IMG/VR virus record: IMGVR_UViG_2928611649_000001
Span: 1 to 64,000 of that record
Length of the DNA: 64,000 bases
Source of the DNA: a virus
Strand: one strand, 5' to 3'
Shown here one piece after another: positions 17,886 to 62,727 of the stretch. Position 1 is the stretch's first letter, and each line of letters begins with the position of its first letter. The notes under the pieces are model-generated. The model was given only the letters and a program-made list of their open reading frames with translations. It did no database searches and was not told the DNA's origin. The translations under genes were made by a program, and so were the position numbers.

Positions 17886-17891
17886 GTTGAT

Positions 17892-20478: not shown

Positions 20479-20496
20479 TCAACCCTCCGCGCAGCG

Positions 20497-21992: not shown

Positions 21993-22265
21993 GTAGTTTT
22001 TGCAGTTCCGCAATGGCTGTTCGAATCGGTATCTCCTGCAGCTTGGTGGAGTCCATTGGACCCTCAAGTGTCATTGGCCCCGTTATGTCGATTCTCACGT
22101 TGAGCCAGCCGAAGTCGTATGTGCCCGAAGTTTTGACTTTCCCGTTGATGAAAGTCGCAGTCATTTCTTTTTTGCAGTCCATGGGAGATCCCTTTGCAAG
22201 TTGTTGTGTGAGAACTGCAACTGTAACGCATTGGAATCTCCCGCCCATATTTTGGAAAGCACCAC

Positions 22266-26880: not shown

Positions 26881-27224
26881 CGCGCATCGTAAAAATATTC
26901 CCTCCGGCCGGTAGCCGCTCGCGCGCGTTGCTCATCGCACTTCAGCAAGGCCCTGGCACCTTCTACCAGGTGTGCGAGCGCGCCAACTTCGACATCGAGG
27001 ACTCCCGCCTTGAACTGGCCCTGCGCCACATCTTCGACCACATGATCGGCGGGAACGTGAGCTTGCGCGGCCTGACCTATTCGCTGACCGAAGATGCACG
27101 GATCTCGTTGGGCGAAGCGCCACCCGCGCCGTACGTTGGTCAGGTGGCCGGCCCAGCCTATCGAGGCACCGCCTATACCGCGCCCGTCAAGATTGCGCGC
27201 CGCGCTGCTGGAGCACACGCATGA
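26877..27224 (+). CDS. Hypothetical protein
   Basis: 115 aa, coupled to the methyltransferase gene. Confidence 0.4.
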   Translation: MTRIVKIFPPAGSRSRALLIALQQGPGTFYQVCERANFDIEDSRLELALRHIFDHMIGGNVSLRGLTYSLTEDARISLGEAPPAPYVGQVAGPAYRGTAYTAPVKIARRAAGAHA

Positions 27225-29617
27225 AGCGCGACGACTTCAATTTCGATCTGCTGCTGGGCGACCTTGCGGCGGGCGCGTCGACGCCGGTTCCAACGTCTCG
27301 GCCAGCAGGACCTCGTTCGCCGCGGCGCGTGAAGCGCGACTTCCTGACGCCGCAACTGGACCTGGGTCATGAGTTAATCATAGACAACTTTGCAGGCGGT
27401 GGCGGGACCAGCACCGGCCTGGAAGAAGCATTCGGCCGCCCGGTGGACATTGCGATCAATCACGACCCCGAAGCCCTGGCGCTGCACGCCATGAACCACC
27501 CGCTCACGAAGCACCTATGCGAGAGCGTTTGGGACGTCGACCCGATCAAGGTGACGAACAACCAGCCGGTCGGCTTGGTCTGGTTGTCGCCGGACTGCAA
27601 GCACTTCAGCAAGGCCAAGGGCGGCACACCAGTGGCAAAGAACATTCGCGGCCTGGCCTGGGTGACGCTGCGTTGGGCGGCGAAGTGCAAGCCGAGGGTG
27701 ATCATGCTGGAGAACGTCGAGGAGTTCAAAACTTGGGGGCCGCTGCTGGTGGACGCCGAGGGCAACTTCCGTCCAGACCCCTCGAAGAAGGGCAGGACGT
27801 TCGAAAGCTTCCTGCGCCAGCTGCGCGGCCACGGCTATACAGTCGACCACAAAGAGATGCGCGCCAGCGACTACGACACCCCGACGATCCGCAAGCGATT
27901 CTTCCTGGTTGCGCGGCGCGATGGCCTGCCGATCCGTTGGCCCGTGCCGACGAATGGCGCACCGACGTCCGCCGGCGTCCTGGCCGGTAACCTCGCGCCC
28001 TGGCGCACGGCCGCCGAGTGCATCGACTGGACCATCCCGTGCCCTAGTATCTTCGAACGCAAGCGGCCGCTGGCCGACGCCACACTGCGCCGCATCGCCA
28101 AGGGCATCCAGCGCTACGTGGTGGACGCGGAGACGCCGTTCATCATCGGGCAGGGCGGTCCGATCTATTCCGGCAAGCCGGTATCGGCCGATCAGCCGTT
28201 CGGCACGCTGACAACCGAGAATCACCGCGCCCTGGTCGTGCCCAGCATCGTACCGGTCACGCACCAGGGCGGCGACCGCAGCGAATCGGTTCATGAGCCG
28301 TTCCGCACAATCACCAGCGCCCAGCGGGGCGAGAAAGCGCTGGCCGTGGCCACGCTGGTGGATGCCGCGCACGGCGAGGTTTCGCCGAGCGGCGTCAAGC
28401 GCTGGGGGCCCGGCTGCAAGGATATTTCTACGCCACTCGGGACGGTGACGGCATCTGGCGGCAACGCAGCGCTGGTGACGGCATTCTTGAACGAACACGC
28501 CAATTCCAGCAATCAGCGCACGATGCCCGCCGACGAGCCGTTGCGCACCATCTGCGCCCAGGTCAAGGGTGGTCACTTCAGCGCCGTCTCCGCGACGCTA
28601 GTGGGCGTGGGCGGCCGTGCTGGGGAAAGCCGACCACGTGGCGCTAACGAGCCGGCGGCGACGATCACTGCGAAGGGCGATACCGCGATCGCCACTGCCT
28701 TCTTGGCGAAGCACTACACCGGTGTCGTTGGCTCTGATCTGGAAGACCCTCTCGGTACTGTGACCAGCTGCGACCACCACAGCCTGATAACTACACACAT
28801 CCAGCGCGACATGGGGCGAAGCGTCGGGCACCCTGCTGATGTACCGTTGGCAACCGTGACAGCTGGGGGCGGCGGAAAGGCGGCGTTGGTATCCGCTCAC
28901 ATTACCAAGTTCCGTACCGGCGCCACCGGCAGCGACATGAACTTGCCAGTGCCGACGATCACGGCGGGGCCCAAGGAGAACCCGGCCGGCGCACCGCACG
29001 CGCTGGGCATCGTCACCGCGCACATCGAGGCGATGTATTCGCAGAAGGGCGACGAATCACGCGGCCAGGACGCGCGCGAGCCGATCAAGACCGTCACGGC
29101 CAGCGCCCAGCACGCGGTGATGACCAGTAGCCTTGTGAAGCTGCGTGGCACCAGCAGCACGGCCAGTATGGATGAGCCGCTGCACACGGTCAGCGCCGGC
29201 GGCCAGCACCACGCCGAGGTGCGTGCCTTCTTGCTTGCGTACTACGGTACCGATCAGGACCAGTCGCCGAATTCGCCGCTGGCCACCGTGACGAGCCGCG
29301 ACCGCTTCGGCCTGGTTACCATCCAGGGCGTCGACTACCAGATCGTCGATATCGGTCTGCGCATGCTGGAGCCGGCCGAACTGTACCGCGCCCAAGGCTT
29401 CCCTGCCGCCTACGTGATCCGCGAAATCCCGGACCCGAAGCTGCTGTTCAAGGATGGGCATCAGGCCGATGGTAACCCATTGGATCTGCCGCGCGTGCCG
29501 CTGACGAAATCAGCCCAGGTGCGGATGTGCGGCAACAGCGTTTGTCCGCCGATGGCGCGGGCGCTGATCCAGGCGAACTTCATGCACGAGCGCGAGATGG
29601 GGACGGTCGCAGCATGA
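27221..29617 (+). CDS. DNA (cytosine-5)-methyltransferase with a greatly expanded target-recognition region (11 tandem TRD-like repeats)
   Basis: Motif I DNFAGGGGTSTG. PC motif PDCKHFSKAKG. ENVEEF is present. The C-terminal RMLEPAELYRAQGFPAAYVI matches the motif IX/X region. Between them are ~500 aa of repeats of the form (D/E)xPLxTVTAxGGxxALV. Confidence 0.8.
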   Translation: MKRDDFNFDLLLGDLAAGASTPVPTSRPAGPRSPRRVKRDFLTPQLDLGHELIIDNFAGGGGTSTGLEEAFGRPVDIAINHDPEALALHAMNHPLTKHLCESVWDVDPIKVTNNQPVGLVWLSPDCKHFSKAKGGTPVAKNIRGLAWVTLRWAAKCKPRVIMLENVEEFKTWGPLLVDAEGNFRPDPSKKGRTFESFLRQLRGHGYTVDHKEMRASDYDTPTIRKRFFLVARRDGLPIRWPVPTNGAPTSAGVLAGNLAPWRTAAECIDWTIPCPSIFERKRPLADATLRRIAKGIQRYVVDAETPFIIGQGGPIYSGKPVSADQPFGTLTTENHRALVVPSIVPVTHQGGDRSESVHEPFRTITSAQRGEKALAVATLVDAAHGEVSPSGVKRWGPGCKDISTPLGTVTASGGNAALVTAFLNEHANSSNQRTMPADEPLRTICAQVKGGHFSAVSATLVGVGGRAGESRPRGANEPAATITAKGDTAIATAFLAKHYTGVVGSDLEDPLGTVTSCDHHSLITTHIQRDMGRSVGHPADVPLATVTAGGGGKAALVSAHITKFRTGATGSDMNLPVPTITAGPKENPAGAPHALGIVTAHIEAMYSQKGDESRGQDAREPIKTVTASAQHAVMTSSLVKLRGTSSTASMDEPLHTVSAGGQHHAEVRAFLLAYYGTDQDQSPNSPLATVTSRDRFGLVTIQGVDYQIVDIGLRMLEPAELYRAQGFPAAYVIREIPDPKLLFKDGHQADGNPLDLPRVPLTKSAQVRMCGNSVCPPMARALIQANFMHEREMGTVAA

Positions 29618-32404: not shown

Positions 32405-35044
32405 ATGAGTGCATTTAGCCCTGAAGAACAAAAATTGCTGATCCAGGCCGAGTACGGCCAGTTCTTGCGCGAGAAAATCAAGATGGCCCCGCTGAAGGGG
32501 TTCGACGTTCCGCTCGAGCAGATCAATCCTACTCTGAAGCCGCATACCCGTGACCTGGTGCGCTGGGGCCTGGCGGGCGGGCAGCGCGGCATCTTCGCCA
32601 GCTTCGGCCTACACAAGACCGCCACCAACATCGAAATCATGCGCCTGATCGGCGTTCACCGTCCGGGCCTGCGTCTGATCGTGCTGCCGCTGGGCGTACG
32701 CCAGGAGTTCGTGCGCGAGGCCGCGAAGCGCTTCACCGGCGAATACGCGGTCAAGCTGCAATTCATCCGGACGACCGCTGAAATGGTCGACCCGGGCGTG
32801 ATCTACATGACGAACTACGAGTCCGTCCGCGAAGGCAAGATCGATGTCGCGCTGTGCCGCGCGGTGGCGCTGGACGAGGCGGCCGTGCTGCGCAGCTACG
32901 GCAGCAAGACGTTCCAAGAGTTCCTGCCGATGTTCGAAAGCGTCGAGTTCAAGTTCGTGTTCACGGCCACGCCAAGCCCGAACCGCCTGAAGGAACTGAT
33001 CCACTACGCCGGGTTCCTGGGCGTGATGGACACCGGCCAGGCGCTGACCCGCTTCTTCCAGCGCGACAGCGAAAAGGCAGGGAACTTGACCCTCTACCCG
33101 CACAAGGAGCAGGAATTTTGGCTGTGGGTCGCCAGCTGGGCGGCCTACCTGCAAAAGCCGAGCGACCTGGGCCACTCCGACGAGGGTTATGCGCTGCCGC
33201 CGCTGGACCTGCGGGTGCACGAGCTGGCCAGCAACTACGACGCCGCTGGCGCCGAGAAGAACGGCCAGGGCCTGCTGATCCCGAATGTCGCCATGGGCCT
33301 GTCGGCCGCCGCCGGCGAGAAGCGCGAAAGCATGGCTGACCGCGTGGCCAAGGCCGTCGAGTTGGTGCTTGCGCGCGCCCCCGGCGAGCAGGCCATTGTC
33401 TGGTGCGACTTGAACGACGAGCAGCGCGCGTTGGAGAAGGCGCTGGCCGCCGCCGGCGTCACGGTTTCATCGCTGGATGGCAGCCAAGACCCGGACCACC
33501 GCGAGCAGCTGATGGACGACTGGCGCGAGCGGCGCACCGACGTGTTCCTGTCGAAGCCGGTGATGTACGGCGCCGGCCCGAACCTGCAGCAGTGCCAACT
33601 GATGATTTTCACGGGCATCGGCTTCAAGTTCGCGGACTTCATCCAGGCGATCCACCGCATCTTTCGCTTCGGCCAGGACGGCACCTGCCGTGTGCACATC
33701 CTGCATACCGAGGTTGAGCGCGCTGTGCTGGCCAGCCTGATGGAGAAGTGGCGCCTACACGACGACGCCCAGGCCATGATGGGCAATATCATCCGCACGT
33801 ACGGCCTGGACAAGCTGTCCATGCAGGACACGCTGGCGCGCACCATCGGCGTGCAGCGCCAGGTTGCCGTCGGCGAGCACTTCACCGTCGCGAACAACGA
33901 CTGCGTGCTGGAAGCGCTGGAACAGGCGGACAACTCGATGGGGATGATTCTGACTTCGATTCCATTCGGAAACATGTACGAATATTCACCGAGCTACAAC
34001 GATTTCGGCCACACACAGGACAATGCGCAGTTCTGGCGCCAGATGGATTTCCTGACCCCGCAGTTGCTACGCATCCTGCAGCCGGGCCGCATCTACGCTT
34101 GCCACGTGAAGGATCGCATCCTGTTCGGCAACGTCACCGGTGCCGGCATCCCGACGGTGAGCCCATTCCACGCTGAGGCGATCTTCCACGGGCTGAAGCA
34201 CCGCTTCGACTACATGGGCATGATCACGGTCGTGACCGACGTGGTGCGCGAGAACAATCAGACCTACCGCCTGGGCTATTCCGAGGTCTGCAAGGACGGC
34301 ACGAAGATGGGCGTCGGCATGCCCGAGTACATCCTGCTGTTCCACAAGCCGCAGACCGACCGCTCGCGCGGCTACGCCGATACGCCAGTCACCAAGGCAA
34401 AGCCGCTGTGCCAGGGAGATGACGGCACGCCGGTGGACTTCGATCGCACGCTGCCGCCAATTCCCGGCACCGGCTACACCGTCGCGCGCTGGCAGGTCGA
34501 CGCGCATGCGTTCTGGCGATCGGGCGGCAACCGCCTGCTGGGCGCGGCGGAGCTGGCCTCCTATGGGCCGGCAAAACTGGCGAAGATGTTCACCGAGCTG
34601 TCGCTGACCAATGTCTACGACTACGAACTGCATGTCGGCGTCGGCGAGCACATGCTGGCCAACAAGGCGCTGCCGGCCACCTATATGAGCCTGGCGCCCG
34701 GCAGCAGCGATCCGATGGTATGGCATGACATTGTCCGCATGCGCACCTTGAACGGCGAGCAGTCGGCGCGCGCGGTCGAGAAGCATGTTTGCCCATTCCA
34801 GGTTGATGTCGTCGACCGCCTGATCCTGCGCTACACGAACCCGGGCGAGAAGGTCTATGACCCGTTCAGCGGCCTCGGCACGGTACCGGTGCGTGCGGTG
34901 AAGCTGCGCCGCTACGGCGGCGGGTCCGAGCTCAGCACCAGCTACTTCGCCGACCAGGTGCACTATTGCCAGGCGGCCGAGCGCGAAATCAGCATCCCGA
35001 CGTTGTTCGACCTGGTGGCGCTCGACCAGAAGAACGCATCGTGA
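32405..35044 (+). CDS. Fusion protein: SNF2/superfamily-2 helicase N-terminal half plus beta-class N6-adenine/N4-cytosine DNA methyltransferase C-terminal half
   Basis: The C-terminal half has MILTSIPFG (a DPPY-like motif IV) followed by DPFSGLGTVP (motif I FxGxG). The N-terminal ~450 aa is helicase-like. Confidence 0.65.
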   Translation: MSAFSPEEQKLLIQAEYGQFLREKIKMAPLKGFDVPLEQINPTLKPHTRDLVRWGLAGGQRGIFASFGLHKTATNIEIMRLIGVHRPGLRLIVLPLGVRQEFVREAAKRFTGEYAVKLQFIRTTAEMVDPGVIYMTNYESVREGKIDVALCRAVALDEAAVLRSYGSKTFQEFLPMFESVEFKFVFTATPSPNRLKELIHYAGFLGVMDTGQALTRFFQRDSEKAGNLTLYPHKEQEFWLWVASWAAYLQKPSDLGHSDEGYALPPLDLRVHELASNYDAAGAEKNGQGLLIPNVAMGLSAAAGEKRESMADRVAKAVELVLARAPGEQAIVWCDLNDEQRALEKALAAAGVTVSSLDGSQDPDHREQLMDDWRERRTDVFLSKPVMYGAGPNLQQCQLMIFTGIGFKFADFIQAIHRIFRFGQDGTCRVHILHTEVERAVLASLMEKWRLHDDAQAMMGNIIRTYGLDKLSMQDTLARTIGVQRQVAVGEHFTVANNDCVLEALEQADNSMGMILTSIPFGNMYEYSPSYNDFGHTQDNAQFWRQMDFLTPQLLRILQPGRIYACHVKDRILFGNVTGAGIPTVSPFHAEAIFHGLKHRFDYMGMITVVTDVVRENNQTYRLGYSEVCKDGTKMGVGMPEYILLFHKPQTDRSRGYADTPVTKAKPLCQGDDGTPVDFDRTLPPIPGTGYTVARWQVDAHAFWRSGGNRLLGAAELASYGPAKLAKMFTELSLTNVYDYELHVGVGEHMLANKALPATYMSLAPGSSDPMVWHDIVRMRTLNGEQSARAVEKHVCPFQVDVVDRLILRYTNPGEKVYDPFSGLGTVPVRAVKLRRYGGGSELSTSYFADQVHYCQAAEREISIPTLFDLVALDQKNAS

Positions 35045-39288: not shown

Positions 39289-39376
39289 GGAAGCATGGCT
39301 GAGAGGCCGAAAGCAACGGCTTGCTAAGCCGCACGCTCGCAAGGGCGCCCAGGTTCGAATCCTGGTGCTTCCGCCA
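39289..39376 (+). tRNA. tRNA-Ser (anticodon GCU), type II with a long variable arm
   Basis: GGAAGCA...TGCTTCC acceptor stem. CCAGG-TTCGAAT-CCTGG T arm. Anticodon loop TTGCTAA. 3' GCCA. Confidence 0.7.
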
Positions 39377-39381
39377 GTTTT

Positions 39382-39455
39382 GCGGGTGTAGCTCAATGGC
39401 AGAGCTGACGCTTTCCAAGCCTATGACCAGGGTTCGATTCCCTGTACCCGCTCCA
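39382..39455 (+). tRNA. tRNA-like, probable tRNA-Gly (UCC) with an imperfect anticodon stem (possibly degenerate)
   Basis: GCGGGTG...TACCCGC acceptor stem. CAGGG-TTCGATT-CCCTG T arm. Loop TTTCCAA. The anticodon stem GACGC/GCCTA pairs at only 3 of 5 positions. Confidence 0.45.
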
Positions 39456-48951: not shown

Positions 48952-50712
48952 ATGACCATCACCACCACGATCAAAGCAGGCGACTCGCCGCAGACCATCA
49001 CGCTGCACGAGGGCAAGGCGCTGACGCTGACCGGCGCAGCTGGCGCCGTCGGTGTCGCGTACCAGCTCGACCTGGTGCTCGGCGGCACGAACTCGGTGAA
49101 GTCATGGGCGGTCGGCACTGGCGCACTGCCGCAGATCGGCCCCTACTCCGGCACGCAGAATATCCTGATCACCTGCACCGCAGGTAGTATTAATGCGACG
49201 GTGGGGGATGCGGCAGTGACGAATTCAGCCACCATCGCAAATCTCGGGAATACCTCGATCGTGCACGCTCCGCGCACCCTGCTGCTGGCTAGCGATTCCA
49301 TCGGCGCCATTTCCGAGGTCATTCTCGGCGCCACGTCGGTGGTGGACAATGGTGACGGTACCGGCACTGCGACCAAGGGGAGCACTTGGGGCGCCAGCGT
49401 CGGTGAGCCGATCCGCATCTGCTCCGCGACTACCAAGACTTTGAATGTGATGGACAGCTACATCTCGGCGATCACCAACGGCGGTAACTCGCTGGTGTTC
49501 CCACTGGGCGGCCGTACATCAACCGTGACATCGCCGTCCACACCGAGCGTGGTGTTCCCAAACCGACGTGGCTCACGCGGCTACCTGAACGCCATGGAGA
49601 TGTTCCTGGGCATTTCGTTCAAGACGACGTGGTGCGGCGTGGCGGGCGCTACGTCCACACAGATCAACACGCTGCTCAACGAGACGCCTCAGACCGGCCT
49701 GTACGATGTTGGTGTTTTTGAGCTCGGCATGAATGACGTCTACTCGGCGCTGCTGGACACGGTTACAGCCTGGCCTCTGCTGAAAGCAGCCATCGACAAC
49801 GTGCGCGGCCGGTGCGGAACGCTGCTGGCCCTCCCTATTCCCCCGCGCGACAGCAGCAGTGGGCAGTGGACGGCGCAACGCCAGACCTATCATACCCAGC
49901 TGAATCGCCTGATCTACGACTACGTGCTGTCCATCGGTGGTTACTTCATCGACACCTGGAAAGCGATGCAGAACGGCGTGACCTATGTGAATCCCGCCGC
50001 GACCAACCCGGACCCATTGACGGCATTCATGTTTGACACGACCCATCCGGCATGGCCAGGCGCATTGGCGATAGGCCGAGCTATGGCCACTCCGCTATTA
50101 CCTCGCATGGGCGCGCCAGGCTGGCAGCCATCGCACGCCAACATGCTGCTGGCGGACAGTGGAAACCTGCTGACCGATGCGGCATTCGCGGTTGATACCA
50201 ACGCCGATGGTGTCTCTGATGGCTGGGCCTTAGTCAGCACCACGGCCAATATGAGCGTCGTTCCCAGTCGCGTACAGCGCACCATCGCCACGGATGGTGA
50301 TGGTGTGGGTTACAACCAGAAACTGCTGTGCAACTACGGAACTGCTACCGGCACTGCTTCTACCAAATTCAGTAAGGCCGGCATGCAAGCGCTGGTTGCT
50401 TCGTATGTTGGGCAAAAGGTGCAGTTCAAGCTGCCATTCTCGCTCACTGGCGCTGTCGGCCTGATCGGTCTGGAGCTGACGATTATGGGTACACTCCCGA
50501 ACAGCCAGAGCTGGCAGATCTACGGGAATGCGCTCGACAGCAGCGCCAAGGCCATCACCGGATCGTTGGCCGGAACGCTGATGACGCCAGAGGCAATTGT
50601 TCCGGCGGGGCTTACGAATCTCGATATATGGGTTCGCCCCTACTTCAATTCGACGCAGACAGCAGACATGACGCTGTTGCTGTGGCAGCCGGATCTGCGC
50701 ATAGCCAGCTAG
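48952..50712 (+). CDS. SGNH/GDSL-family hydrolase domain protein (putative virion-associated esterase)
   Basis: LLLASDSIG is block I GDSx. GMNDV is block III. DTTHPA is block V DxxH. Confidence 0.55.
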   Translation: MTITTTIKAGDSPQTITLHEGKALTLTGAAGAVGVAYQLDLVLGGTNSVKSWAVGTGALPQIGPYSGTQNILITCTAGSINATVGDAAVTNSATIANLGNTSIVHAPRTLLLASDSIGAISEVILGATSVVDNGDGTGTATKGSTWGASVGEPIRICSATTKTLNVMDSYISAITNGGNSLVFPLGGRTSTVTSPSTPSVVFPNRRGSRGYLNAMEMFLGISFKTTWCGVAGATSTQINTLLNETPQTGLYDVGVFELGMNDVYSALLDTVTAWPLLKAAIDNVRGRCGTLLALPIPPRDSSSGQWTAQRQTYHTQLNRLIYDYVLSIGGYFIDTWKAMQNGVTYVNPAATNPDPLTAFMFDTTHPAWPGALAIGRAMATPLLPRMGAPGWQPSHANMLLADSGNLLTDAAFAVDTNADGVSDGWALVSTTANMSVVPSRVQRTIATDGDGVGYNQKLLCNYGTATGTASTKFSKAGMQALVASYVGQKVQFKLPFSLTGAVGLIGLELTIMGTLPNSQSWQIYGNALDSSAKAITGSLAGTLMTPEAIVPAGLTNLDIWVRPYFNSTQTADMTLLLWQPDLRIAS

Positions 50713-51899
50713 TCATCCCCACCTGCTAGCTTTCCTTTGCCTCGTTTATGTTTATTTAAGAATGGTCGGATTTCTGCCCACGCTGCCTTAAGTATTCGGT
50801 CGTATTCCAGGGCACGTTGCTGCTGCTCAAGAGTAGAAAGTATGGCCGTGACATCGGCTTTGCTATCAAGTACTTCCCCAAATTTCTGCTCAACGTTTGC
50901 AACAACTTCAATCGCAAGCGGAAGTACGTCGTCGATTGTAAGCGGCGGATGATTTCCTTCCATGGCAAGCGTTTGCATCATTACGAGAACCCAGCTCATC
51001 CTAATCGGGAGCGGAGGATGGGTCTTACCAATTGCAATCTCTCCGTCCCATGGGGATGGGTTCAGCATCCGGAAAAAGGTATATCCAGCGATAACGGTGG
51101 AGGAAACAACAGCCTGCACCGTGCCATATAGGCAGTGCTGTGCGAGCGATCTGAAATAAGTATTCAAATCTGCAACACTAGCGTTTGCGTTGAGTATAGG
51201 TAACTCAGCATCTTGGTATTCGGCCAATCTGCTTAGGCCCCATTGGAGTTGGATTAACACTGCATTGCAGTCCGCGTCCATTTCTAGGGCCTGGCGGTAC
51301 AACCAATCCGGCGCTTCTTCGGTGTTAATCATTTCAATCATTTGTGTTTGCCGGAAAGTATTAACGAGTTCTAGATGACCGTTCTTCACATGGGCGAATT
51401 CATGGCGGATCAGAAATTCCATAGATGCAATTGCCATTTGATGGGCACAAAAATATCTAAGAATATCGGAACAGGTTAGTCCATCAGCGCTGACGTACCG
51501 TGGATCGATTTGTATACTTTTCCAGTTTTCGCCCGGTAGATCAGGGATAGACCCGACATCGAGAGAATCGGGCGAGGCATATAGCGCTACAAACCAACTG
51601 AATGCAGTAATTATTGAGCCTGAATAGATTCCAATGAGATCGGTCTCGCTTGGCCCAGCTTTAGTGGCGTAACAGGTTGCGTTTGAATTCTCGTTTGATA
51701 TCACCTCTAGCACGAGAGGACGTTGACCGTCGAGATAAAAGTGCCTTCGCATAGTCTCGCATGAATTGCGAAAGATCGGAATGCTCTGACTTATTGCCGC
51801 CACGTGCCCGGCTGGCATCCAGTCTGCGGGTTCGAACCTGCCGCCCTTGCTGGCAATAAAGCGCTCGAGTTCTTCATTGTAGGTTTCTTCAATTGCCAT
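50709..51899 (-). CDS. Reverse-strand moron: 396-aa protein with an HExxH motif (LIRHEFAHVKNGH), low GC
   Basis: Opposite strand within the head-tail operon. AT-rich relative to flanks. HEFAH resembles ImmA/IrrE-type zinc peptidase motifs. Confidence 0.5.
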   Translation of the reverse strand: MAIEETYNEELERFIASKGGRFEPADWMPAGHVAAISQSIPIFRNSCETMRRHFYLDGQRPLVLEVISNENSNATCYATKAGPSETDLIGIYSGSIITAFSWFVALYASPDSLDVGSIPDLPGENWKSIQIDPRYVSADGLTCSDILRYFCAHQMAIASMEFLIRHEFAHVKNGHLELVNTFRQTQMIEMINTEEAPDWLYRQALEMDADCNAVLIQLQWGLSRLAEYQDAELPILNANASVADLNTYFRSLAQHCLYGTVQAVVSSTVIAGYTFFRMLNPSPWDGEIAIGKTHPPLPIRMSWVLVMMQTLAMEGNHPPLTIDDVLPLAIEVVANVEQKFGEVLDSKADVTAILSTLEQQQRALEYDRILKAAWAEIRPFLNKHKRGKGKLAGGDD

Positions 51900-51937
51900 C
51901 GTCGCCTCTAATAAACTTGACCATTGGGAATATTATT

Positions 51938-52459
51938 ATGGCACTAAATGTCGAAACCGGCGCCGGCCTGGCGAATGCCGAGAGCTACATCTCGGTCGCG
52001 GACGCGACGACTTACCACGCGAACCTCGGCAACTCCGCATGGGCGGCGCTGGCGTCCGACACCGTGCGCGAGCAGCTCTTGCGCCAAGCGACCGAGTACA
52101 TGGTTGGCCAGTACCGCGACAACTGGAAGGGTCAGCGCACGAGCGCCACGCAGGCGCTGGACTGGCCGCGCTACAACGTGCAACTTCCCGATGTCGGCAT
52201 TGGCCGATATCCCGCCTACGTCCAGCCCAACGTCGTCCCGGTCGAGGTGGCGAACGCCTGCGCCGTTCTGGCGCTGCAAGCCATCAGCGGCCCGCTGGCG
52301 CCGAACCTGGAACGCACCATCAAGCAGGACACGGTCGGCCCGCTGACGACAATCTACGCTGATGGGGCTCCAGAGCGGCCGCGCTACACGGCCGTCGACA
52401 ACATGCTGAAGGTGTACTTGGCCGGATCGGGCACGTCGGGAAGGTTGGTACGCGGATGA
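51938..52459 (+). CDS. Head-tail connector / adaptor candidate
   Basis: Position only. 173 aa. Confidence 0.4.
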   Translation: MALNVETGAGLANAESYISVADATTYHANLGNSAWAALASDTVREQLLRQATEYMVGQYRDNWKGQRTSATQALDWPRYNVQLPDVGIGRYPAYVQPNVVPVEVANACAVLALQAISGPLAPNLERTIKQDTVGPLTTIYADGAPERPRYTAVDNMLKVYLAGSGTSGRLVRG

Positions 52460-52896
52460 GCGCCAGCCCGAACATGCACCGCGAGGCCTTCAACCTTCTG
52501 TGCGAAGACCTGATCTACCAAGGCATGTCGCGTGCGGTCTGGTCCAGTTTGGTCTTTCCGGATTGTGTGGTCAAGGTGGAAGATCGCCGGGGCTATTTCC
52601 AAAACGTCGTTGAATGGGAAACCTGGCAGCGCGTCAAGGATACACCGATGGCGCGATGGTTTGCCCCCTGCCGGTGGATCAGCCCAAACGGGGCAATTCT
52701 GGTAATGGAGCGCACGCGCGCGGCCGGCGATGCCCAATATCCCGAAAAGATGCCGGCCTTCCTGTGTGACTTCAAGCGTCGCAATTATGGAATGCTGGGC
52801 GCCGATCTGGTTTGCCACGACTACGGGACGAATATGTTGTTCGAGAACGGCATGACGAAACGCATGGTTGGCGCCAACTGGAGTGACGGTGCATGA
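52456..52896 (+). CDS. Hypothetical structural protein
   Basis: 146 aa. Confidence 0.35.
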   Translation: MSASPNMHREAFNLLCEDLIYQGMSRAVWSSLVFPDCVVKVEDRRGYFQNVVEWETWQRVKDTPMARWFAPCRWISPNGAILVMERTRAAGDAQYPEKMPAFLCDFKRRNYGMLGADLVCHDYGTNMLFENGMTKRMVGANWSDGA

Positions 52897-56180: not shown

Positions 56181-56482
56181 GCAAGGCCGCCGACGGCAAC
56201 GCAGTCGGTGATCACGTTGATGCCGCTAAGCGTCACCCGCTCTACAAGGCGGATGACGCGCCGGCGGCGCCTGAGGTGCCGCTGGAGCTTGAATACCTCT
56301 GGCTGCTGTTCCTCAAGCTCAGCCGCAAGAGGCAGAACGGTATGGGGCCAAACCCCATCACCAGCGAGGAAGTTCTCGCCTGGTGCACCCGCCAGCAGGT
56401 CGTGCTCACCCCATCCGAACACACGGTCATCGACCAAATCGATGACCTGTTCCTGTCGCAACAATACAAGAAGGAAAAGTGA
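55680..56482 (+). CDS. Tail assembly chaperone G-T fusion produced by a programmed -1 ribosomal frameshift at A_AAT_TTT (~56117-56123)
   Basis: The -1 frame is open from the slippery heptamer to 56482. The frame-2 ORF 56276..56482 encodes a T-like domain (LEYLWLLFLKLSRKRQNGMGPNPITSEEVLAW). Confidence 0.5.
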
Positions 56483-59400
56483 TGCCTGATATCGCCTCAA
56501 TCGGACTCGGCATGGATTCGCGGCCTGTTGTGGAAGGCACTAAGGCACTTGATGCCCTTGGTGCGTCCGCAACAGCTGTAGAGCCGAAGATCGATAAGGT
56601 CGCCAAGGCGGCGGATGGAATGAGCGAGGCGAGCGCCAAGGTCTGGCGTTACGGCACCGATGCGGCTAAGGCGGTTGAGGCGCTGGGCGCGGCGAGTGCG
56701 CGCACCGGAGAGCGCACCCAGGCCACCAATGGCCAGATGTCCGACACGGCCAAGATCATGCAAGCCCAGGCCACCGAGGCGCGCGCAGCAGCCCAGGCCA
56801 ACGTCGCGCTGGGGGCCTCCTCTCAGCAGATGACCATCGGCTCCCAGCTCTTCATCGAGAAGCTACGCGAGCAGGCCGCCACAGTGGGCATGAGCCGCTC
56901 GCAGCTGGCCGCCTATCAAGCGGCGCAGCTGGGCGTCTCGCGGGAGGCTGAGGCCTCCGTGGCAAAGCTGAAGGCCTACGAGGAAGCGATCAAAGGGGCG
57001 GCCGATGCTAAAGCTCAGGCGGCGAAGCAGACCAACGTACTGACCGACGCCATCAAGATCCTGGCGGCTGGCTACGGCGCACTGAAGCTGACCGAATACA
57101 TCAAGGACGCCGCGCTGCTGGCCGCGCGTTACGAGACGCTGGGCATCGTGTCGACCGTCGTCGGCAAGAACGCTGGCTACACCAAGACGCAGATGGACAC
57201 GGCCACCGACGCCATCGCGCGTCAAGGCATCACCATGATCGAGTCGCGCCAGTCGGCAATCAAGCTGGTGCAGGCACACGTCGACCTGACCAATGCGACC
57301 GGCCTGGCCCGAATCGCGCAGGATGCCGCGGTGATCGGCAACATCAATTCGTCCGAGGCCTTCGACCGCCTGGTCAACGGCGTCGCTCGCGGCAACACCC
57401 TGATCCTGCGCAACATCGGCATCAACGTGAACCTGCAGGCGGCGTATCAGCAGATGGCGGCCGAGCTTGGCAAGAGCACGAAAGAGCTGACCGAGAACGA
57501 GCGGGTGCAGGCGCGCCTGAACGCCGTGCTCGAACGCGGGACCGACATCGCCGGCACCTACGAGGCCTCGATGGACACGGCCGGCAAGCAGCTGAAGTCC
57601 ATGCAGCGCTACACCGAGGACCTGAAGACCGTCATCGGCGAGACCTTCACCGAGGTGCTGACCATCGGCGTCATGGCGCTGACCGACCACCTCAAGGACG
57701 CGAACAAGGAAGTCAACGAGCTCTCAAAGAATCAGCAACTGCACGAGTGGGGCCGCTCCTTGGCTGACGTGTTCATCTGGGTTGCGAACAAAGTCGGCAA
57801 TGCCACGACACTGCTGCAGCAAGCATCGGCATGGGCTGACCACAAGTCCGCGCGCGATGACATCGACTCGAAGTACAAAGGCCTGGCTAACGACAACGCC
57901 AAGAACTCCAGTTTCTGGGATATCGGCTTCTCCGATTCCGGGAAGCGCCTGGCTGCCGCAAAGGCCGCCGAAATGGCGGAGGAGAACGTCGCTTACGTGA
58001 CCCAGCAGGCAAAGCTTGCCGGGCAATACGACGCCTTCGCAAAGGCGGGCGCCGAGCGCGAAACCGTGATGACGGCCAAGCACAAGGCCGAGGCAGACGC
58101 ACGCCTGAAGGTCGATACCGATTATGCGGAGAAGTCGCGTGCGGTGCAGGTTGCATACGCCGGGTACAGCCTGAAAATCCAACAGGATGCCCAGATGGCG
58201 CTGGCCAAGTCCGTGTACGTCGGCACTCCAACGTTCCGTGATACCGAAGGCCGTGAGCCGAAGGCAAAGGTCAATCAGGTCGAGAGTACCGAGTTGGCGG
58301 ACCGGCTCGCCCGCATCCAGGACCTGGTCGGCGCCGAGAAGCAGATGTACGACACCATGTCGAAGATGGACGACATGTTCCATGCCGCCGGAAAGATGGG
58401 TGACGCCGAGTATTACCAGAACAAGCGCGACTACGCGGCCGCCGCGGCGAAGGACCAGATCGACGGCTACACCAAGCAGATCGCTGACCTGCGGGCGTAC
58501 CACAACGCGACCGCTGCTGAGGCGGCGAAGCATGCCAAGCAGATCAACGACATCGAGGCGAAGCGCGCGGCCGCCGGCGTGAATGCGCAGGATGAGCAGA
58601 ACCTCCTGACCGCCAAGGAATCCCTGCGCCTGGATGCGATTGCATCCGCATCCGAGGATGCCACAAATAAATACCTCGCCGGCCTGGATCAAGAGGCTAA
58701 AAAACTGGAAGAGTCGAACGCCGCGCACGAAACATCGAAGGGTGCCGTCGAGCGCGAGAACATCGCCCGCCTGGATGCTGCCATCGCGGCCCAGCAGCAG
58801 TTCATGGCCGAGCAGGTGCTGTTCGGCGCCACCGACGCCGAGTTGGCGCAGGCGCCAGTCATCCTGAAATATCTGGAGGACGTGCGCGCCGCGCGTGCGC
58901 GCATTGCCGCAGGCATGGATCAGCAGCAGGCCGGCCAGTTCAAGGACAAGATGGCCGACCAGGCGATCAAGGATTGGCAGCGCGCTGGCCAGAGCATCGC
59001 CGATAGCCTGACGTCCGCCTTCGGCGCCGGCGGCAAGGCACTGGGCGGCATGTTCCAGGCATATGCCAAGGGCATGGAAGGGCAGCTGCGCGCGCAGAAG
59101 GACCTGGCCCTCGCCAAGAAGCAGGCCGATGACGATCCGGCAAAGATCGAGGCGATCAACCGCGCCCAGCTGGCCGGTGCCCAATCGCAGATCCAAGGCT
59201 ACGCCGGCATGACGTCCGCTGCCCAGGGATTCTTCGCTGAGGGCTCGCGCGGCTACCAGGCCATGCACGCAGCGACCGTGGCGTTGCAGGGCGCCGAGAT
59301 TGCGCTCAGCCTGATCAAAGGCGTCAACGCGGTGCTGACGCAGGGTGAGGGTGATCCCTACTCGGCGTTCGTTCGCATGGCCGCCATGGCCGCCATCGTG

Positions 59401-62400
59401 ACTGGCCTGGGCGTTGCGCTCAGCGGCGGTGGTGGCGGTGGTGGCGGGCAGTCGGCCGCCGACGTCCAGAAAGCACAAGGCACCGGTTCGGTGTTCGGCG
59501 ACAGCTCCGCGAAGTCGGACTCGGTGCGCCATTCGATCGAGCAGATGTCGGCGAATACCGACCTGCTGGTCCCGATCAACCAGGGCATGCTGACGTCGCT
59601 CAAGGCGATCGAGGCGTCGATGGTTGGCCTGACCAACCTGGTGGTGCGCACGCCGGGCGTCACCGACGGCACCAACATGGGCATCCAGACCGGCACAATC
59701 GGCAAGTCGACTGGGGCATCCATCGCCGCCGGCGCGCAGGTTGGCTCGATGATCGGCGGTTATATCGCTGGCCCCGTAGGCATGATGGTCGGCGCCATCG
59801 GTGGGGCAATCGTCGGCGGCCTCAAAAGCATCTGGGGCAAGACGACTCAGAACATTGTTGATTCCGGCCTTCAGTATGGCGGCAGTGTGCGTAGTCTCCA
59901 GGACGGGAAGGGCTTCGACCAGTACGCCAGCGTGGATACCACGAAGTCGAGCTTCTTTGGCCTGTCGAAGAGCACCAGCAACTCCGTGCAGACCCAGGGC
60001 TTGAATGATGAGCTGTCGAAGCAATTTGGCCTGATCTTCACGAACCTGGACAAGTCCCTGCAGGCCGCATCGGTGGCACTGGGCGGCTCGGCCGCCGACG
60101 TGACCAAGGTGCTGGACGGCCTGACGCTGGAAAGCACCAAGGTCTCGCTCAAGGGGCTGACCGGCACGGCGCTGACCGATGCGCTGAACTCGGTCATTTC
60201 GAAATCGATGGACGACATCGCGTCGGCCGCCTTCCCGCAGATGGACCAGTTCCGCAAGGTGGGCGAGGGTTATGCCGAGACCGTCATGCGTATCGCCGGC
60301 GACTACGCCAAGCTCGACTCGATCCTGGCTGCTACCGGCACGACGTTCGGCCCGGTAGGCATGGCCAGCCTCGCTGCGCGCGAGCACCTGATCGAGCTGG
60401 CCGGCGGCATCGACCAGCTGAACAGCCAGACGAACTCGTTCTCGCAGAACTTCCTGTCGAAGGCCGAGCAGCTGGCGCCGGTGCAGAAGTACGTCACCGA
60501 CCAGCTGGCCGCCATGGGCCTGCAGAGCCTGACCACGCGCGACCAGTTCAAGGACTACGCGCTGGGCCTAGCCAACTCCGGCGCTCTCGCCACCGACGCC
60601 GGCGCGCAGCAGTACGCCTCGCTGATGGCTCTGTCTGAAGCCTTCGCCAAGACCCATGCCGCCACGGTCGACCTGACTAAGTCGGAGCAGGAAGTTGCTG
60701 ACGAGCGCACCGACCTGCAGAACAAGCTCGACGATCTGACGATGTCGCAGGCGCAGTTGGCGGAGAAAGCTGAGAAGGCGATTTCATCCCACAACCTGGC
60801 GCTATACCAGCAGGTACAGGCTGCCGAATTGCTGGAGAAGAAACGCGCGATGGAAATCACGCTCATGGAGCTGACGGGCGACAAGGCTGGCGCGCTGGCG
60901 GCGAACCGCGCAACTGAACTCGCCGGCATGTCGGCGGCGTTGCGTCCGACGCAAGAGCTGATCTACGCCCAGCAGGATTTGGCCGCGGCAACACAGGAAA
61001 CGGCCACCATCCTCGGCCTACAAGCTCAAATGTACGCTGCCAACGGCGACAAAGTCAGCGCGGCAGCGGTTCTGGAACAGCAGCATGCAGCATCGCTGGT
61101 TGGCCTCACTCCGGCGGTGGCGGCCGCAACGCAGGCCACCTGGGCTGCGCAGGCTGCTGAGAAGGCGAAAAAGGATGCTCTGGACGAGTCGAACGCGATC
61201 CTCGGATTGCAAGCCCAGTTGCTTGCATCCACCGGTGATAAGGCCGGCGCCGCCGCAGTGCTGGAGCAGCAACACATCAACGCCTTGACCGGCCTGACAC
61301 CCGCCGTCGCTCAAGCCACCAAGGAACTGTGGGCAGCGCAGGCGGCCGAGAAATTCCATGCGGACGCCATGGCAAATCGTTCGGCGGTACTCACGCAGCA
61401 GGCCGCCTACTACACGACCATCAACGACAAGGCCAGCCTGGCCCGCGTCACCGAAGATCAGCGCACCGCGTCGCTTGTCGGTCAGACCGCCGAGGTTGCG
61501 AACTGGACGCGCATGGCATGGGCTGCAGCGGATGCCGAGAAGGCGCGCACCAACGCGCTGGCGGAATCGAACGCGATATTGCAGCTGCAGGCGCAAACTG
61601 CCGCCGCAACCGGTGACCAGGCTGCCGCGGCTGCGGTTCTTGAGCAGCAACATACCAATGCCATGATTGGCTTGTCGCCGGCCGTAGCGGATGCTACTCG
61701 GACGATGTGGGCCGCCGAGCAGGCTGCGAAGGCCAAGGCCAGTGTTGATAGCTTGACCGTCGAACTCCTCAACGCTCAAGGGTTGTCGCAGGAGGCTGTC
61801 AACCTGCAGCGCCGGGCGGAGATTGCCGCCCTCTCGGACACTGAGCGCGCGCTCAAGGAGTCCACTTATGCGGCGATCGACAAGGCCAAGACGGGCAGCC
61901 TGCAAGTTCAGCTTCTGCAAGCGCAGGGCAATGATGCGGCGGCCACCGTCCTTCAGCGTCAACAAGCGCTTGCCGCACTCGGCGTTCAGGATCGCGCCCT
62001 TCAGCAGGCAATTTACGACGCGCAAGACAAGCATGTAGCTGACCAACAGGCCGCTCAGGTTGCTGCGGCCATGGCTCAGGCCCAGCAGCAGGCGGCCGAG
62101 GAGTCGAAGCGCGCTGCCGAGGCGCTGAAATCCGCATGGCAGGGCCTGACCGATTCGATCACCGATGAGGTGAAGCGTATCCGCGGCCTGATCGATGGTG
62201 GTGGTGAGCAGTCCTACGCCAGTTCGCAGGCGGCATTTGCCATCGCGACGGGGCAGGCGCGCTCCGGCGATCAGGACGCGGCGAAGTTGCTGCCAAGCCT
62301 GTCGAAAGCGATGCTCGACCTGGCGGAAGCCAACGCCGTGACGTCGTTCGATCTGCGCCTGGCGCGCGCGCAGGCAGCAGCAAGCCTGACGCAGACCAAC

Positions 62401-62727
62401 AGCATCATTGCCGCGCAGTTCGGCTTGAAGGTGCCGAGCTTCGACGTCGGCACCGACTACATAAGCCAGACAGGCCTGGCCCTTGTGCATCAGGGCGAAT
62501 CGATCACGCCTGCTGCGTCCAACCGTCCGTACACGCAATCGAACGCCGGCGGCGGCAACGCCGAACTGGTGGCCGAGATTCGCGCGCTGCGTGCGGAAGT
62601 GGCTGCACTTCGCAGCGACAACTCGACATGGAGTGCGCCTATGGGGCGCGACATGAAGCGCGTGGCTGACACGCTGGAAATTGTCACCGATGGCGGCAAC
62701 GCCATGCGCACGAAAGAGGAGGCGTAA
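56479..62727 (+). CDS. Tail tape measure protein (2082 aa) with internal ~50-aa tandem repeats
   Basis: Size and position. Repeats of ILGLQAQ..GDK..AAAVLEQQH..L.GLTPAVA.AT...WAAQAAEK occur about 4-5 times around 61000-61700. Confidence 0.85.
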   Translation: MMPDIASIGLGMDSRPVVEGTKALDALGASATAVEPKIDKVAKAADGMSEASAKVWRYGTDAAKAVEALGAASARTGERTQATNGQMSDTAKIMQAQATEARAAAQANVALGASSQQMTIGSQLFIEKLREQAATVGMSRSQLAAYQAAQLGVSREAEASVAKLKAYEEAIKGAADAKAQAAKQTNVLTDAIKILAAGYGALKLTEYIKDAALLAARYETLGIVSTVVGKNAGYTKTQMDTATDAIARQGITMIESRQSAIKLVQAHVDLTNATGLARIAQDAAVIGNINSSEAFDRLVNGVARGNTLILRNIGINVNLQAAYQQMAAELGKSTKELTENERVQARLNAVLERGTDIAGTYEASMDTAGKQLKSMQRYTEDLKTVIGETFTEVLTIGVMALTDHLKDANKEVNELSKNQQLHEWGRSLADVFIWVANKVGNATTLLQQASAWADHKSARDDIDSKYKGLANDNAKNSSFWDIGFSDSGKRLAAAKAAEMAEENVAYVTQQAKLAGQYDAFAKAGAERETVMTAKHKAEADARLKVDTDYAEKSRAVQVAYAGYSLKIQQDAQMALAKSVYVGTPTFRDTEGREPKAKVNQVESTELADRLARIQDLVGAEKQMYDTMSKMDDMFHAAGKMGDAEYYQNKRDYAAAAAKDQIDGYTKQIADLRAYHNATAAEAAKHAKQINDIEAKRAAAGVNAQDEQNLLTAKESLRLDAIASASEDATNKYLAGLDQEAKKLEESNAAHETSKGAVERENIARLDAAIAAQQQFMAEQVLFGATDAELAQAPVILKYLEDVRAARARIAAGMDQQQAGQFKDKMADQAIKDWQRAGQSIADSLTSAFGAGGKALGGMFQAYAKGMEGQLRAQKDLALAKKQADDDPAKIEAINRAQLAGAQSQIQGYAGMTSAAQGFFAEGSRGYQAMHAATVALQGAEIALSLIKGVNAVLTQGEGDPYSAFVRMAAMAAIVTGLGVALSGGGGGGGGQSAADVQKAQGTGSVFGDSSAKSDSVRHSIEQMSANTDLLVPINQGMLTSLKAIEASMVGLTNLVVRTPGVTDGTNMGIQTGTIGKSTGASIAAGAQVGSMIGGYIAGPVGMMVGAIGGAIVGGLKSIWGKTTQNIVDSGLQYGGSVRSLQDGKGFDQYASVDTTKSSFFGLSKSTSNSVQTQGLNDELSKQFGLIFTNLDKSLQAASVALGGSAADVTKVLDGLTLESTKVSLKGLTGTALTDALNSVISKSMDDIASAAFPQMDQFRKVGEGYAETVMRIAGDYAKLDSILAATGTTFGPVGMASLAAREHLIELAGGIDQLNSQTNSFSQNFLSKAEQLAPVQKYVTDQLAAMGLQSLTTRDQFKDYALGLANSGALATDAGAQQYASLMALSEAFAKTHAATVDLTKSEQEVADERTDLQNKLDDLTMSQAQLAEKAEKAISSHNLALYQQVQAAELLEKKRAMEITLMELTGDKAGALAANRATELAGMSAALRPTQELIYAQQDLAAATQETATILGLQAQMYAANGDKVSAAAVLEQQHAASLVGLTPAVAAATQATWAAQAAEKAKKDALDESNAILGLQAQLLASTGDKAGAAAVLEQQHINALTGLTPAVAQATKELWAAQAAEKFHADAMANRSAVLTQQAAYYTTINDKASLARVTEDQRTASLVGQTAEVANWTRMAWAAADAEKARTNALAESNAILQLQAQTAAATGDQAAAAAVLEQQHTNAMIGLSPAVADATRTMWAAEQAAKAKASVDSLTVELLNAQGLSQEAVNLQRRAEIAALSDTERALKESTYAAIDKAKTGSLQVQLLQAQGNDAAATVLQRQQALAALGVQDRALQQAIYDAQDKHVADQQAAQVAAAMAQAQQQAAEESKRAAEALKSAWQGLTDSITDEVKRIRGLIDGGGEQSYASSQAAFAIATGQARSGDQDAAKLLPSLSKAMLDLAEANAVTSFDLRLARAQAAASLTQTNSIIAAQFGLKVPSFDVGTDYISQTGLALVHQGESITPAASNRPYTQSNAGGGNAELVAEIRALRAEVAALRSDNSTWSAPMGRDMKRVADTLEIVTDGGNAMRTKEEA

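Follow-up and report, generated by a model that had tools for sequence, protein, structure and literature searches.

A Lit-related zinc metallopeptidase gene inserted antisense between head and neck genes of a Duganella prophage: a candidate single-gene abortive-infection moron

The 396-aa open reading frame described here lies on the minus strand of a 64,000-nt stretch of viral DNA (positions 1 to 64,000 of IMG/VR virus record IMGVR_UViG_2928611649_000001; in the following, the window). With moderate confidence we regard it as a horizontally acquired single-gene moron of a Duganella prophage, which encodes a cytoplasmic, gluzincin-type zinc metallopeptidase with a catalytic core distantly related to Lit. 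Most likely the gene is anti-phage cargo of the prophage and represents a large branch of the Lit family; the reading that fits best is a one-gene moron for an abortive-infection or exclusion protease. Lit is the cell-death peptidase of the e14 cryptic prophage of E. coli K-12 (Peptidase U49 in MEROPS and Pfam, PF10463); it aborts T4 infection and was among the first abortive-infection systems for which both the trigger, a capsid peptide, and the target, EF-Tu, became known. Lit of E. coli cuts EF-Tu at Gly59-Ile60, and does so only in the presence of bound Gol peptide; the mechanism is known for this protein alone (PMC3014915).

The preliminary description of the window had reported a 396-aa minus-strand frame, AT-rich relative to its neighbours and interrupting a plus-strand structural operon, and all three statements proved accurate, the frame lying exactly as claimed (Table 1). 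Its GC content is 0.483, that of the window 0.623; GC3 is 0.48 in the frame and 0.72-0.83 in the adjoining genes. A GC content this low is reached by only 0.11% of windows of the same length (z = -3.7), the lowest GC of the whole 64 kb falls within the frame, and in 100-bp steps the GC content falls at 50700 and rises again at 52000. The interruption of the operon is literal: the letters CTAG at 50709-50712 are common to the stop codons of the frame and of the upstream plus-strand gene, giving a 4-bp overlap, while on the other side a gap of 38 bp separates its ATG from that of the head-tail adaptor gene Ad1. It is the sole antisense gene of the late operon; between position ~22.7 kb and the window's end, all remaining ORFs with coding-type GC3 and a phage annotation are located on the plus strand. 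The Shine-Dalgarno-like sequence listed in Table 1 has its counterpart in the Duganella callida homologue, which displays AGGAGGAGG at the equivalent position. Promoter and terminator, named in the preliminary description as features to be checked, were both not recognised: consensus scans, which are weak evidence in a betaproteobacterium, gave neither a minus-strand consensus promoter nor, for either strand, a terminator, and a permissive search within the 200 nt 5' of the frame found no sigma-70-like promoter.

Table 1. Coordinates of the inserted gene, its motifs and its borders in the window.
Feature	Position	Strand	Remarks
Left border, 586-aa head-module protein	48952..50712	+	N-terminal stretch of ~90 aa conserved, C-terminus variable
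Inserted AT-rich segment, 1225 bp	50713..51937		Between the stop of the 586-aa gene and the Ad1 ATG; one gene only
ORF, 396 aa, ATG start	50709..51899	-	Gene for Lit-related (U49/M48-like) zinc metallopeptidase; predicted soluble, acidic
HP...R motif, H294-P-P-L-P-I-R300	51000..51020	-	R300 invariant; P295 in 78/81, H294 in 72/81
Glutamate helix motif ExxAD, E206-M-D-A-D210	51270..51284	-	E206 and D210 invariant; A209 in 80/81
Active-site helix motif HExxHxxxGH, LIRHEFAHVKNGH, residues 163-175	51375..51413	-	H166, E167, H170, G174, H175
Shine-Dalgarno-like GAGG	51905..51908	-	6-9 nt 5' of the ATG; read from the sequence
Right border, head-tail adaptor Ad1	51938..52459	+	phrog_477, E 9.5e-46

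A foreign insertion had been proposed at this place, and the comparison with related prophages upholds it. Their loci were anchored on Ad1 by a genome scan with a two-sequence Ad1 alignment, a single Ad1 protein having found nothing. In six of these prophages (L062, L063, L069, L009, L010, and L076), whose Ad1 is 59-90% identical to that of the window, the site is empty, with no gene between: the upstream stop either overlaps the Ad1 ATG or lies 2-10 bp away from it. Because relatives have an empty site at this junction, the segment in the window is a precise 1.2-kb insertion. The ATG assigned to Ad1 agrees with the start of its homologues. The 586-aa protein on the left border matches phrog_6102, a lipase (E 1.5e-8), and reaches 30.3 bits against the cut-off of 32.9 with Pfam Lipase_GDSL_2, a sub-threshold GDSL/SGNH-like match; across the lineage, its conservation is confined to the N-terminus. 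Among the head genes are a scaffold gene and one for an SPP1 gp7-like protein. Only one of the other Ad1-anchored prophage loci contains a family member; carriage in the lineage amounts to 2 of about 100 distinct prophages. At the same junction related prophages have other antisense cargo, and the alternatives seen in the lineage are Lit-like peptidases, HNH proteins, and PEP-CTERM surface proteins.

An exhaustive HMMER search revealed a family of 279 clusters at 50% identity with a length of about 380-390 aa, where a word-indexed homologue search had given only the protein itself and one weak match. Among 81 sequences of this family, H166, H170, G174, H175, E206, D210, and R300 are invariant. 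The HExxH sequence had been noted before as a putative zinc metallopeptidase motif, and it is in fact no chance match, given that H166 and H170 are invariant and that E167 is found in 80 of the 81 homologues. A zinc metallopeptidase is also supported by a confident structural model, which shows a gluzincin fold with the HExxH helix and, further downstream, the Glu helix. This model is based on a multiple sequence alignment, the single-sequence AlphaFold model being unusable (pLDDT 43). From what is known of gluzincins and M48 peptidases, E206 is presumed to be the third zinc ligand. The N-terminus of the protein, MAIEETYNEELERF, is acidic; the 19-residue hydropathy maximum is 1.73, with one window above 1.6 compared to 40 in HtpX, and neither a signal peptide nor a transmembrane segment was seen by hydropathy or at the N-terminus. 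A secreted or membrane protease was ruled out on these grounds. A head-maturation protease was ruled out as well, since the gene is antisense, since the closest relatives lack it, and since homologues also occur outside phages.

Profile comparison pointed to Lit as the closest characterised relative. The alignment of the family with 27 Lit sequences by hhalign reached 94.6%, a value short of 99% (E 6.6e-8), over 187 columns with about 13% identity, bringing the HExxHxxxxH, ExxAD, and HP..R motifs into register: H166, E167, H170, and H175 align to Lit H160, E161, H164, and H169, E206, A209, and D210 to Lit E181, A184, and D185, and P295 and R300 to P233 and R238 of the Lit motif T231-H232-P233...R238. 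Invariant among Lit homologues are H169, E181, A184, D185, P233, and R238. It extends as far as residue 299 of the query, which corresponds to residue 247 of Lit. With matched single-sequence targets, the family profile gave 68.6% for Lit versus 22-24% for HtpX, BepA, and LoiP, the latter across 16-26 columns only. An HMM built from Lit sequences matched 28 of the 81 members at E<=1e-3, and the PADLOC Lit model matched 32 of them (best 2.3e-7); for the 396-aa protein itself, the PADLOC match has an E of 0.004 and covers 51 of 290 model positions. The closest homologue bears the UniRef name 'Peptidase U49'. Pfam U49 (PF10463.15) missed the 396-aa protein even at E<=10 and, at E<=0.01, all 81 members; precomputed PF10463.16 matches are present in some homologues only. 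Altogether, the catalytic core appears to be remotely homologous to Lit and, at a still larger distance, to M48 peptidases.

Both Lit and the protein described here are single-gene, prophage-borne HExxH zinc peptidases, and in both a convincing transmembrane segment is absent according to hydropathy. They differ, however, in several features. Lit has the architecture of a single-domain protein of about 295 aa, with 297 aa in Lit itself and 285-336 aa in its homologues, whereas the 396-aa protein has about 100 extra helical residues at its C-terminus and a different N-terminus; its gene is antisense within a structural operon and not next to an integrase, and its host is a betaproteobacterium. 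The preliminary description had suggested an anti-phage or abortive-infection-type cargo, a suggestion that gains from the relationship to Lit; the defence function itself we infer from this homology and from the context.

Members of the family occur as single genes, either in prophages or in chromosomal islets of small size, and at every locus examined they are AT-rich compared to their flanks. The syntenic D. callida prophage carries one in the same slot, and this allele is 31.6% identical to that of the window whereas the structural proteins are 52-92% identical, a divergence as expected for arms-race cargo. Another member adjoins the integrase of Microcystis phage Mwe-Yong1, and further ones are located beside a capsid/ClpP remnant and beside a NACHT gene, though on chromosomes the neighbours are mostly ordinary housekeeping genes and not recognisable defence islands. 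No plasmid homologues were found, phage matches at the DNA level were uninformative, and literature searches revealed no defence phenotype for any family member. With the morons of temperate phages the gene shares its deviant composition, its precise presence or absence at a gene junction, and the alternative cargo in relatives. The classical definition of a moron also includes an own promoter and terminator, which were not recognised here, and the gene is tightly packed between its neighbours.

Other functions have to be weighed against that of an anti-phage protease. Peptidases of the M48 family (PF01435), such as HtpX, BepA, LoiP, and Ste24 (e.g., PDB 3c37 and 6sar), have the same gluzincin fold with its two characteristic helices, and the nearest structural neighbours of our model are in fact generic M48 peptidases rather than defence proteins. 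The 396-aa protein scores 19.6 bits with the Pfam M48 model, against a cut-off of 20.3, and at E<=0.01 only 10 of the 81 members are matched. We nevertheless consider it unlikely that the gene encodes an ordinary M48-type housekeeping or lysogenic-conversion enzyme uninvolved in phage-phage conflict, whose resemblance to Lit would reflect the shared M48-like catalytic core only. HtpX, Ste24, BepA, and LoiP are membrane-embedded or envelope-targeted, whereas the 396-aa protein shows no such targeting, and they are encoded by conserved housekeeping genes, whereas the present family is mobile, AT-rich, patchy in its distribution, single-copy, and fast-diverging. Furthermore, under matched conditions the family profile favours Lit over the E. 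coli M48 enzymes, and the match reaches the N-terminal sheet region. That the gene no longer functions and is decaying after an old insertion is very improbable: no promoter or terminator was identified, but the frame is intact and of full length, every invariant family residue is kept, the ribosome-binding site is good, and the family alignment yields a confident model.

Regulatory proteolysis is a common mode of action for HExxH metallopeptidases of mobile elements. ImmA/IrrE (M78) and CapP, which are such peptidases, respond to an infection or damage signal, and their partner is an adjacent HTH repressor (ImmR, DdrO, or CapH). A protease of this type would cleave a transcriptional repressor on a stress or infection signal, for example in the control of prophage induction or to turn on another gene set, without killing the cell. 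Two of the 81 members indeed match PADLOC capP weakly (E about 0.006), and a small HTH gene is found just upstream, on the same strand, in two homologous loci (HTH_3 in L146 and MarR in L004-L006). The insertion in the window, however, consists of one gene with no HTH partner, both neighbours being virion genes, and at the majority of homologous loci an adjacent HTH gene is missing as well; with no Pfam M78/ImmA match, and with Lit and M48 as neighbours in profile and fold, we regard this function as improbable. Little probability can likewise be assigned to a protease that benefits the phage, either during its lytic growth or in overcoming the immunity of the host; it might, for example, degrade a defence protein or remodel other proteins of the host. 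The position inside the structural module would fit such a function, phage-encoded zincin and M48-like proteins exist (BFVD matches), and proteases are plausible tools of counter-defence. On the other hand, the gene is antisense to the late operon, rarely carried, and absent from the closest relatives; nothing in the head genes of the prophage suggests that this protease is needed, and homologues are found in chromosomal islets without nearby phage genes.

For the preferred reading, an abortive-infection or exclusion protease, a mode of action can be outlined by analogy with Lit. The protease would be produced in the lysogen and held latent. Upon infection by a second phage, an abundant late phage protein would form a complex with an essential host protein, as a capsid segment does with EF-Tu in the case of Lit, and this complex would be the substrate; cleavage of the host protein would halt translation, and the cell would die without phage release. 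Sibling lysogens, and their prophage with them, would thereby be shielded. In the active site, zinc is probably bound by His166, His170, and Glu206, with Glu167 as the putative catalytic base. The approximately 100 additional C-terminal residues, which are not present in Lit, represent a candidate sensor or substrate-docking module. Due to its antisense position inside the late operon, the gene could be silenced by late transcription of the prophage itself when the latter enters lytic growth. A more far-reaching proposal, which we consider unlikely, is that the ~380-aa family forms a distinct class of suicide proteases sensing capsid or other late proteins, in which the C-terminal helical domain would recognise triggers other than T4 Gol, the host target would be another than EF-Tu Gly59-Ile60, and the antisense placement at the head-neck junction of Duganella prophages would let late transcription shut the gene off by convergent transcription. 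If true, such a convergent shut-off would allow a phage to carry an Abi gene with a capsid trigger and yet escape the problem of self-targeting.

To our knowledge, Lit has so far been essentially a one-protein paradigm from E. coli. Our data suggest that Lit has an uncharacterised sister family, much larger and with longer proteins (~380 aa), in Proteobacteria and some phages, which present defence-annotation profiles barely graze. Should its members prove to be proteases triggered by phages, more capsid-sensing immune proteins would be known, and new triggers and targets could come to light. The head-neck junction, which is empty in some prophages and holds alternative antisense cargo in others, is a clean natural experiment, useful for studying how a moron is gained and how it coexists with late transcription.

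Judged by sequence and profile comparison, the product of the open reading frame (ORF) appears to be a divergent, longer variant of the Lit-type, prophage-borne cell-death peptidases and not something categorically new; no characterised member of its family was found in the literature. The ORF has a GC content of 0.483, compared with 0.623 for the window; its third-position GC is 0.48, that of its neighbours 0.72-0.83. Just 0.11% of the 1191-bp windows across the 64 kb reach this AT content (z = -3.7), and the lowest GC value overall falls within the ORF. Reading frame, composition and motif agree with the preliminary description of a 396-aa, AT-rich minus-strand ORF with an HExxH motif. An identical protein is recorded from Duganella violaceipulchra as 'hypothetical protein'. 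The gene has a good ribosome binding site (GAGG, 51905..51908); a check for its own promoter and terminator had also been suggested, and our scans recognised neither a consensus promoter nor a terminator.

The flanking plus-strand genes form a siphovirus-type late operon, which the ORF interrupts in antisense, as had been proposed. Packing is extreme: the ORF and the upstream plus-strand gene have their stop codons in one shared CTAG (50709-50712), and the divergent ATGs of the ORF and of Ad1, the head-tail adaptor gene directly to its right, are just 38 bp apart. We compared 131 loci anchored on Ad1 homologues, taken from genomes and IMG/VR. In the closest gene-free relatives (L062, with an Ad1 90% identical, L063, L069, L009, L010, and L076), the upstream gene stops 2-10 bp short of the Ad1 ATG or runs into it. 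Because the upstream gene abuts Ad1 there, the window holds a 1225-bp insertion (50713..51937), which contains exactly one gene; the empty sites in these six relatives and the deviating GC content speak for the foreign insertion suspected earlier. In L062, L063, and L010, where the distance is 2-10 bp, Ad1 is likely to be translationally coupled to the upstream gene, while in the window it must start independently after the insertion, at a weak GGGA-type site in the insertion-derived AT-rich segment 51900..51937. The upstream 586-aa protein, encoded after the major head gene, is conserved across the lineage only in its N-terminal ~90 aa; the remainder is variable and here includes a sub-threshold GDSL/SGNH hydrolase region, a pattern consistent with a fibre or decoration protein attached to the head whose C-terminal domains can be exchanged.

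Coordinates of the features in the window and of the genes occupying the head-neck slot in related loci
Feature	Position	Strand	Remark
798-aa protein with C5-cytosine methylase domain	27221..29617	plus	
879-aa protein with Helicase_C and N6/N4 methylase domain	32405..35044	plus	
tRNA Ser(gct)	39289..39376	plus	inside phage region, upstream of packaging genes
tRNA Gly(tcc)	39382..39455	plus	adjoins tRNA Ser(gct)
Large terminase	41596	plus	
Portal	42899	plus	
SPP1 gp7-like head morphogenesis protein	44377	plus	
Scaffold	46091	plus	
Major head protein	46926	plus	
Small HeH-domain protein	48442	plus	
586-aa head-module protein	48952..50712	plus	GDSL-like region
ORF	50709..51899	minus	ATG start, 396 aa; antisense, between 586-aa head-module gene and Ad1
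HExxH-containing motif LIRHEFAHVKNGH	51375..51413	minus	ORF residues 163-175
Head-tail adaptor Ad1	51938	plus	real ATG
phrog_4301 protein	52456..52896	plus	146 aa
Head closure Hc1	52893	plus	
Neck1	53252	plus	
Tail terminator	53863	plus	
Tube-like protein	54215	plus	
Tail assembly chaperone	55680	plus	
2082-aa ORF in tape-measure position	56479..62727	plus	D. callida counterpart with Pfam TMP_2
PEP-CTERM slot genes	L061:6287-6904, L068:6264-6923, L072:6276-6953, L085:6311-6913, L016:6309-6833, L021:6210-6866, L023:6239-6904	minus	just upstream of Ad1
Other slot occupants	L074:6152-6982, L081:3186-3986, L132:2276-2749, L039:6039-6926	minus	HNH_5 and Cys-rich proteins

Scanned with the family HMM, the Ad1-anchored loci yielded just one other prophage with a member, that of Duganella callida (L011 = L073 = L002), in the same slot and the same antisense orientation. 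Structural proteins of the two prophages share 52-92% identity (TerL 92%, MCP 64%, Ad1 64%, Hc1 74%), whereas the two peptidase genes are merely 31.6% identical; the D. callida gene is likewise AT-rich (GC 0.455 vs ~0.63). A different AT-rich antisense ORF adjoins Ad1 in about 15 further prophages, alternative occupants being PEP-CTERM-anchored (PF07589) secreted proteins, HNH_5 proteins, and a Cys-rich protein. The slot is a hotspot with the classical presence/absence pattern of morons. The PEP-CTERM occupants carry the sorting motif at the C-terminus (E ~1e-10); they are proteins of the cell surface or associated with exopolysaccharide, delivered by the prophage, and may serve as lysogenic-conversion cargo. 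Those of L074, L081, L132, and L039 are ~270-aa proteins with an HNH_5 domain (PF14279, E 2e-10) and a Cys-rich protein of 295 aa that matched no family; none matched a PADLOC model, and they may be uncharacterised defence or exclusion genes.

Further features of the window deserve mention. The phrog_4301 gene between Ad1 and Hc1 (GC 0.578, product without Pfam match) occurs only sporadically in the lineage, also in L062, L063, L031, and L044; its product is 88% identical in L017, against only 48% for the neighbouring Ad1 and 30% for Hc1. The gene looks like a separately mobile sense-strand cassette. A second AT-rich stretch (17300..22400, GC 0.50-0.55) with minus-strand ORFs directly precedes a Rha/ANT antirepressor gene at 22745 and may harbour additional accessory or immunity genes; its ORFs 19148..19705, 19786..20478, and 21050..21436 have no Pfam match. 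The two large DNA-modification proteins are phage-encoded and likely serve anti-restriction functions.

Scanned as a single sequence, the query protein gave only marginal matches to Pfam Peptidase_M48 (19.6 bits, cut-off 20.3) and PADLOC Lit (E 0.004), none to NCBIfam, and no meaningful one to PHROGs or PDB sequences. An exhaustive HMMER search yielded 279 cluster representatives at E<=1e-3 (67 at E<=1e-10), mostly of 370-400 aa, matching over the full length and 25-31% identical to the query. Based on the residues conserved in an alignment of 81 sequences, invariant (H166, H170, G174, H175, E206, D210, and R300) or conserved to at least 90% (E167, D208, A209, P295, R277, E337, and W374), the family signature reads HExxHxxxGH ... 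ExDAD ... HP....R. The AlphaFold model built with the family alignment is confident (pLDDT 89.3, pTM 0.92), displaying a sheet of three strands, the HExxH helix (residues 146-172), a 'glutamate helix' (198-229), and a C-terminal region made up of helices. Conservation and model thus strengthen the earlier suggestion of a zinc metallopeptidase motif; H166, H170, and E206 would be the zinc ligands and E167 the catalytic base. Foldseek found no whole-chain equivalent in the PDB; of the viral models, a single one matched over the full length, that of an uncharacterised metagenomic myovirus protein of 428 aa (E 8e-8, TM 0.57). The absence of a TM segment and the acidic N-terminus predict a cytoplasmic location for the family protein of the window.

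Remote homology, proposed as a check along with structure prediction, pointed to Lit of the E. coli K-12 e14 prophage. The PADLOC Lit model matched 32 of the 81 members (best 2.3e-7) and Pfam M48 ten (best 8e-5). Profile-profile comparison with a Lit alignment of 27 sequences, started from the K-12 protein, gave 94.6% probability (E 6.6e-8, 187 columns, query 59-299, Lit 41-247), all invariant core residues of Lit being in register: H160/E161/H164/H169 correspond to H166/E167/H170/H175, E181/A184/D185 to E206/A209/D210, and H232-P233...R238 to H294-P295...R300. With matched single-sequence targets, the family profile reached 68.6% for Lit (63 columns) against 22-24% for HtpX/BepA/LoiP (16-26 columns); as Lit itself aligns to LoiP (86%), the family, Lit, and these M48 enzymes belong to one superfamily. 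Two findings speak against strict Lit membership: hmmscan with PF10463.15 gave no U49 match at E<=0.01 for the query or the other sequences of the 81-member alignment (nor at E<=1 for P0003, P0005, and P0006 rescanned singly), and the query is ~100 aa longer than Lit. We therefore call it Lit-related rather than Lit; its family is best placed beside that of Lit, as a sister, among the M48-like gluzincins. Annotation sources disagree on U49, as precomputed PF10463.16 matches exist for the homologues P0003, P0005, P0006, P0009, and P0016 (loci L002, L004, L007, L144, and L148; strong for P0003 and P0016), all within the 81-sequence alignment; in UniRef the homologue from D. callida is listed as 'Peptidase U49'.

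Each member examined is a single gene, AT-rich compared with its flanks (0.42-0.46 vs 0.54-0.63). Besides the syntenic D. callida prophage, members adjoin the integrase of the temperate Microcystis phage Mwe-Yong1 (annotated 'peptidase family M48'), a capsid/ClpP remnant, and a NACHT gene, whose 658-aa product is encoded just upstream on the same strand (L148:2639-4615, member 4925-6130). Several lie in small chromosomal islets flanked by housekeeping genes, in Serratia and MAGs; a plasmid search found none. At two loci a small HTH gene lies just upstream on the same strand, Xre-type HTH_3 in L146 (7592-7897, member 8001-9176) and MarR in L004 (7517-7963, member 8001-9155). Such neighbourhoods may indicate a tie to defence islands in certain lineages and a dedicated regulator in others.

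Lit itself, a zinc protease with an HExxH motif, stays latent until production of the T4 major head protein, whose Gol segment binds to EF-Tu; Lit then cuts the complex between Gly59 and Ile60, whereupon translation stops and the infection is aborted (PMC3014915). Given its homology to Lit, its organisation as a single gene, its carriage by a prophage, its AT-richness, and its rapid divergence, the Duganella gene most likely serves the same kind of phage-triggered suicide proteolysis, which would protect the lysogen population; we give this slightly better than even chances. An ordinary enzyme of the M48 type or a conversion factor, in either case with no part in phage conflict, is improbable, given that envelope targeting is absent and the profile favours Lit over the M48 controls. 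Slightly less probable, and equally so, are two further roles. An ImmA/CapP-like regulatory protease would be expected to have the HTH partner that is absent at the window locus, and a protease for the phage's own lytic cycle or counter-defence sits poorly with an antisense gene that the closest relatives lack and whose homologues also occur outside phages. The intact frame and the retention of all invariant residues make a dead remnant very unlikely.

The abortive-infection reading put forward in the preliminary description is backed as far as sequence analysis goes. In a Lit-like mechanism, the gene would be expressed in the lysogen and the protease kept latent; a late phage protein would act as the trigger and a translation factor as the substrate. 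More speculatively, the extra C-terminal domain might be a sensor, and the antisense position might allow late transcription of the prophage itself to shut the gene down at induction. The most useful by-products are the definition of the family, with its invariant residues and model, and a well-defined moron hotspot at the head-neck junction.
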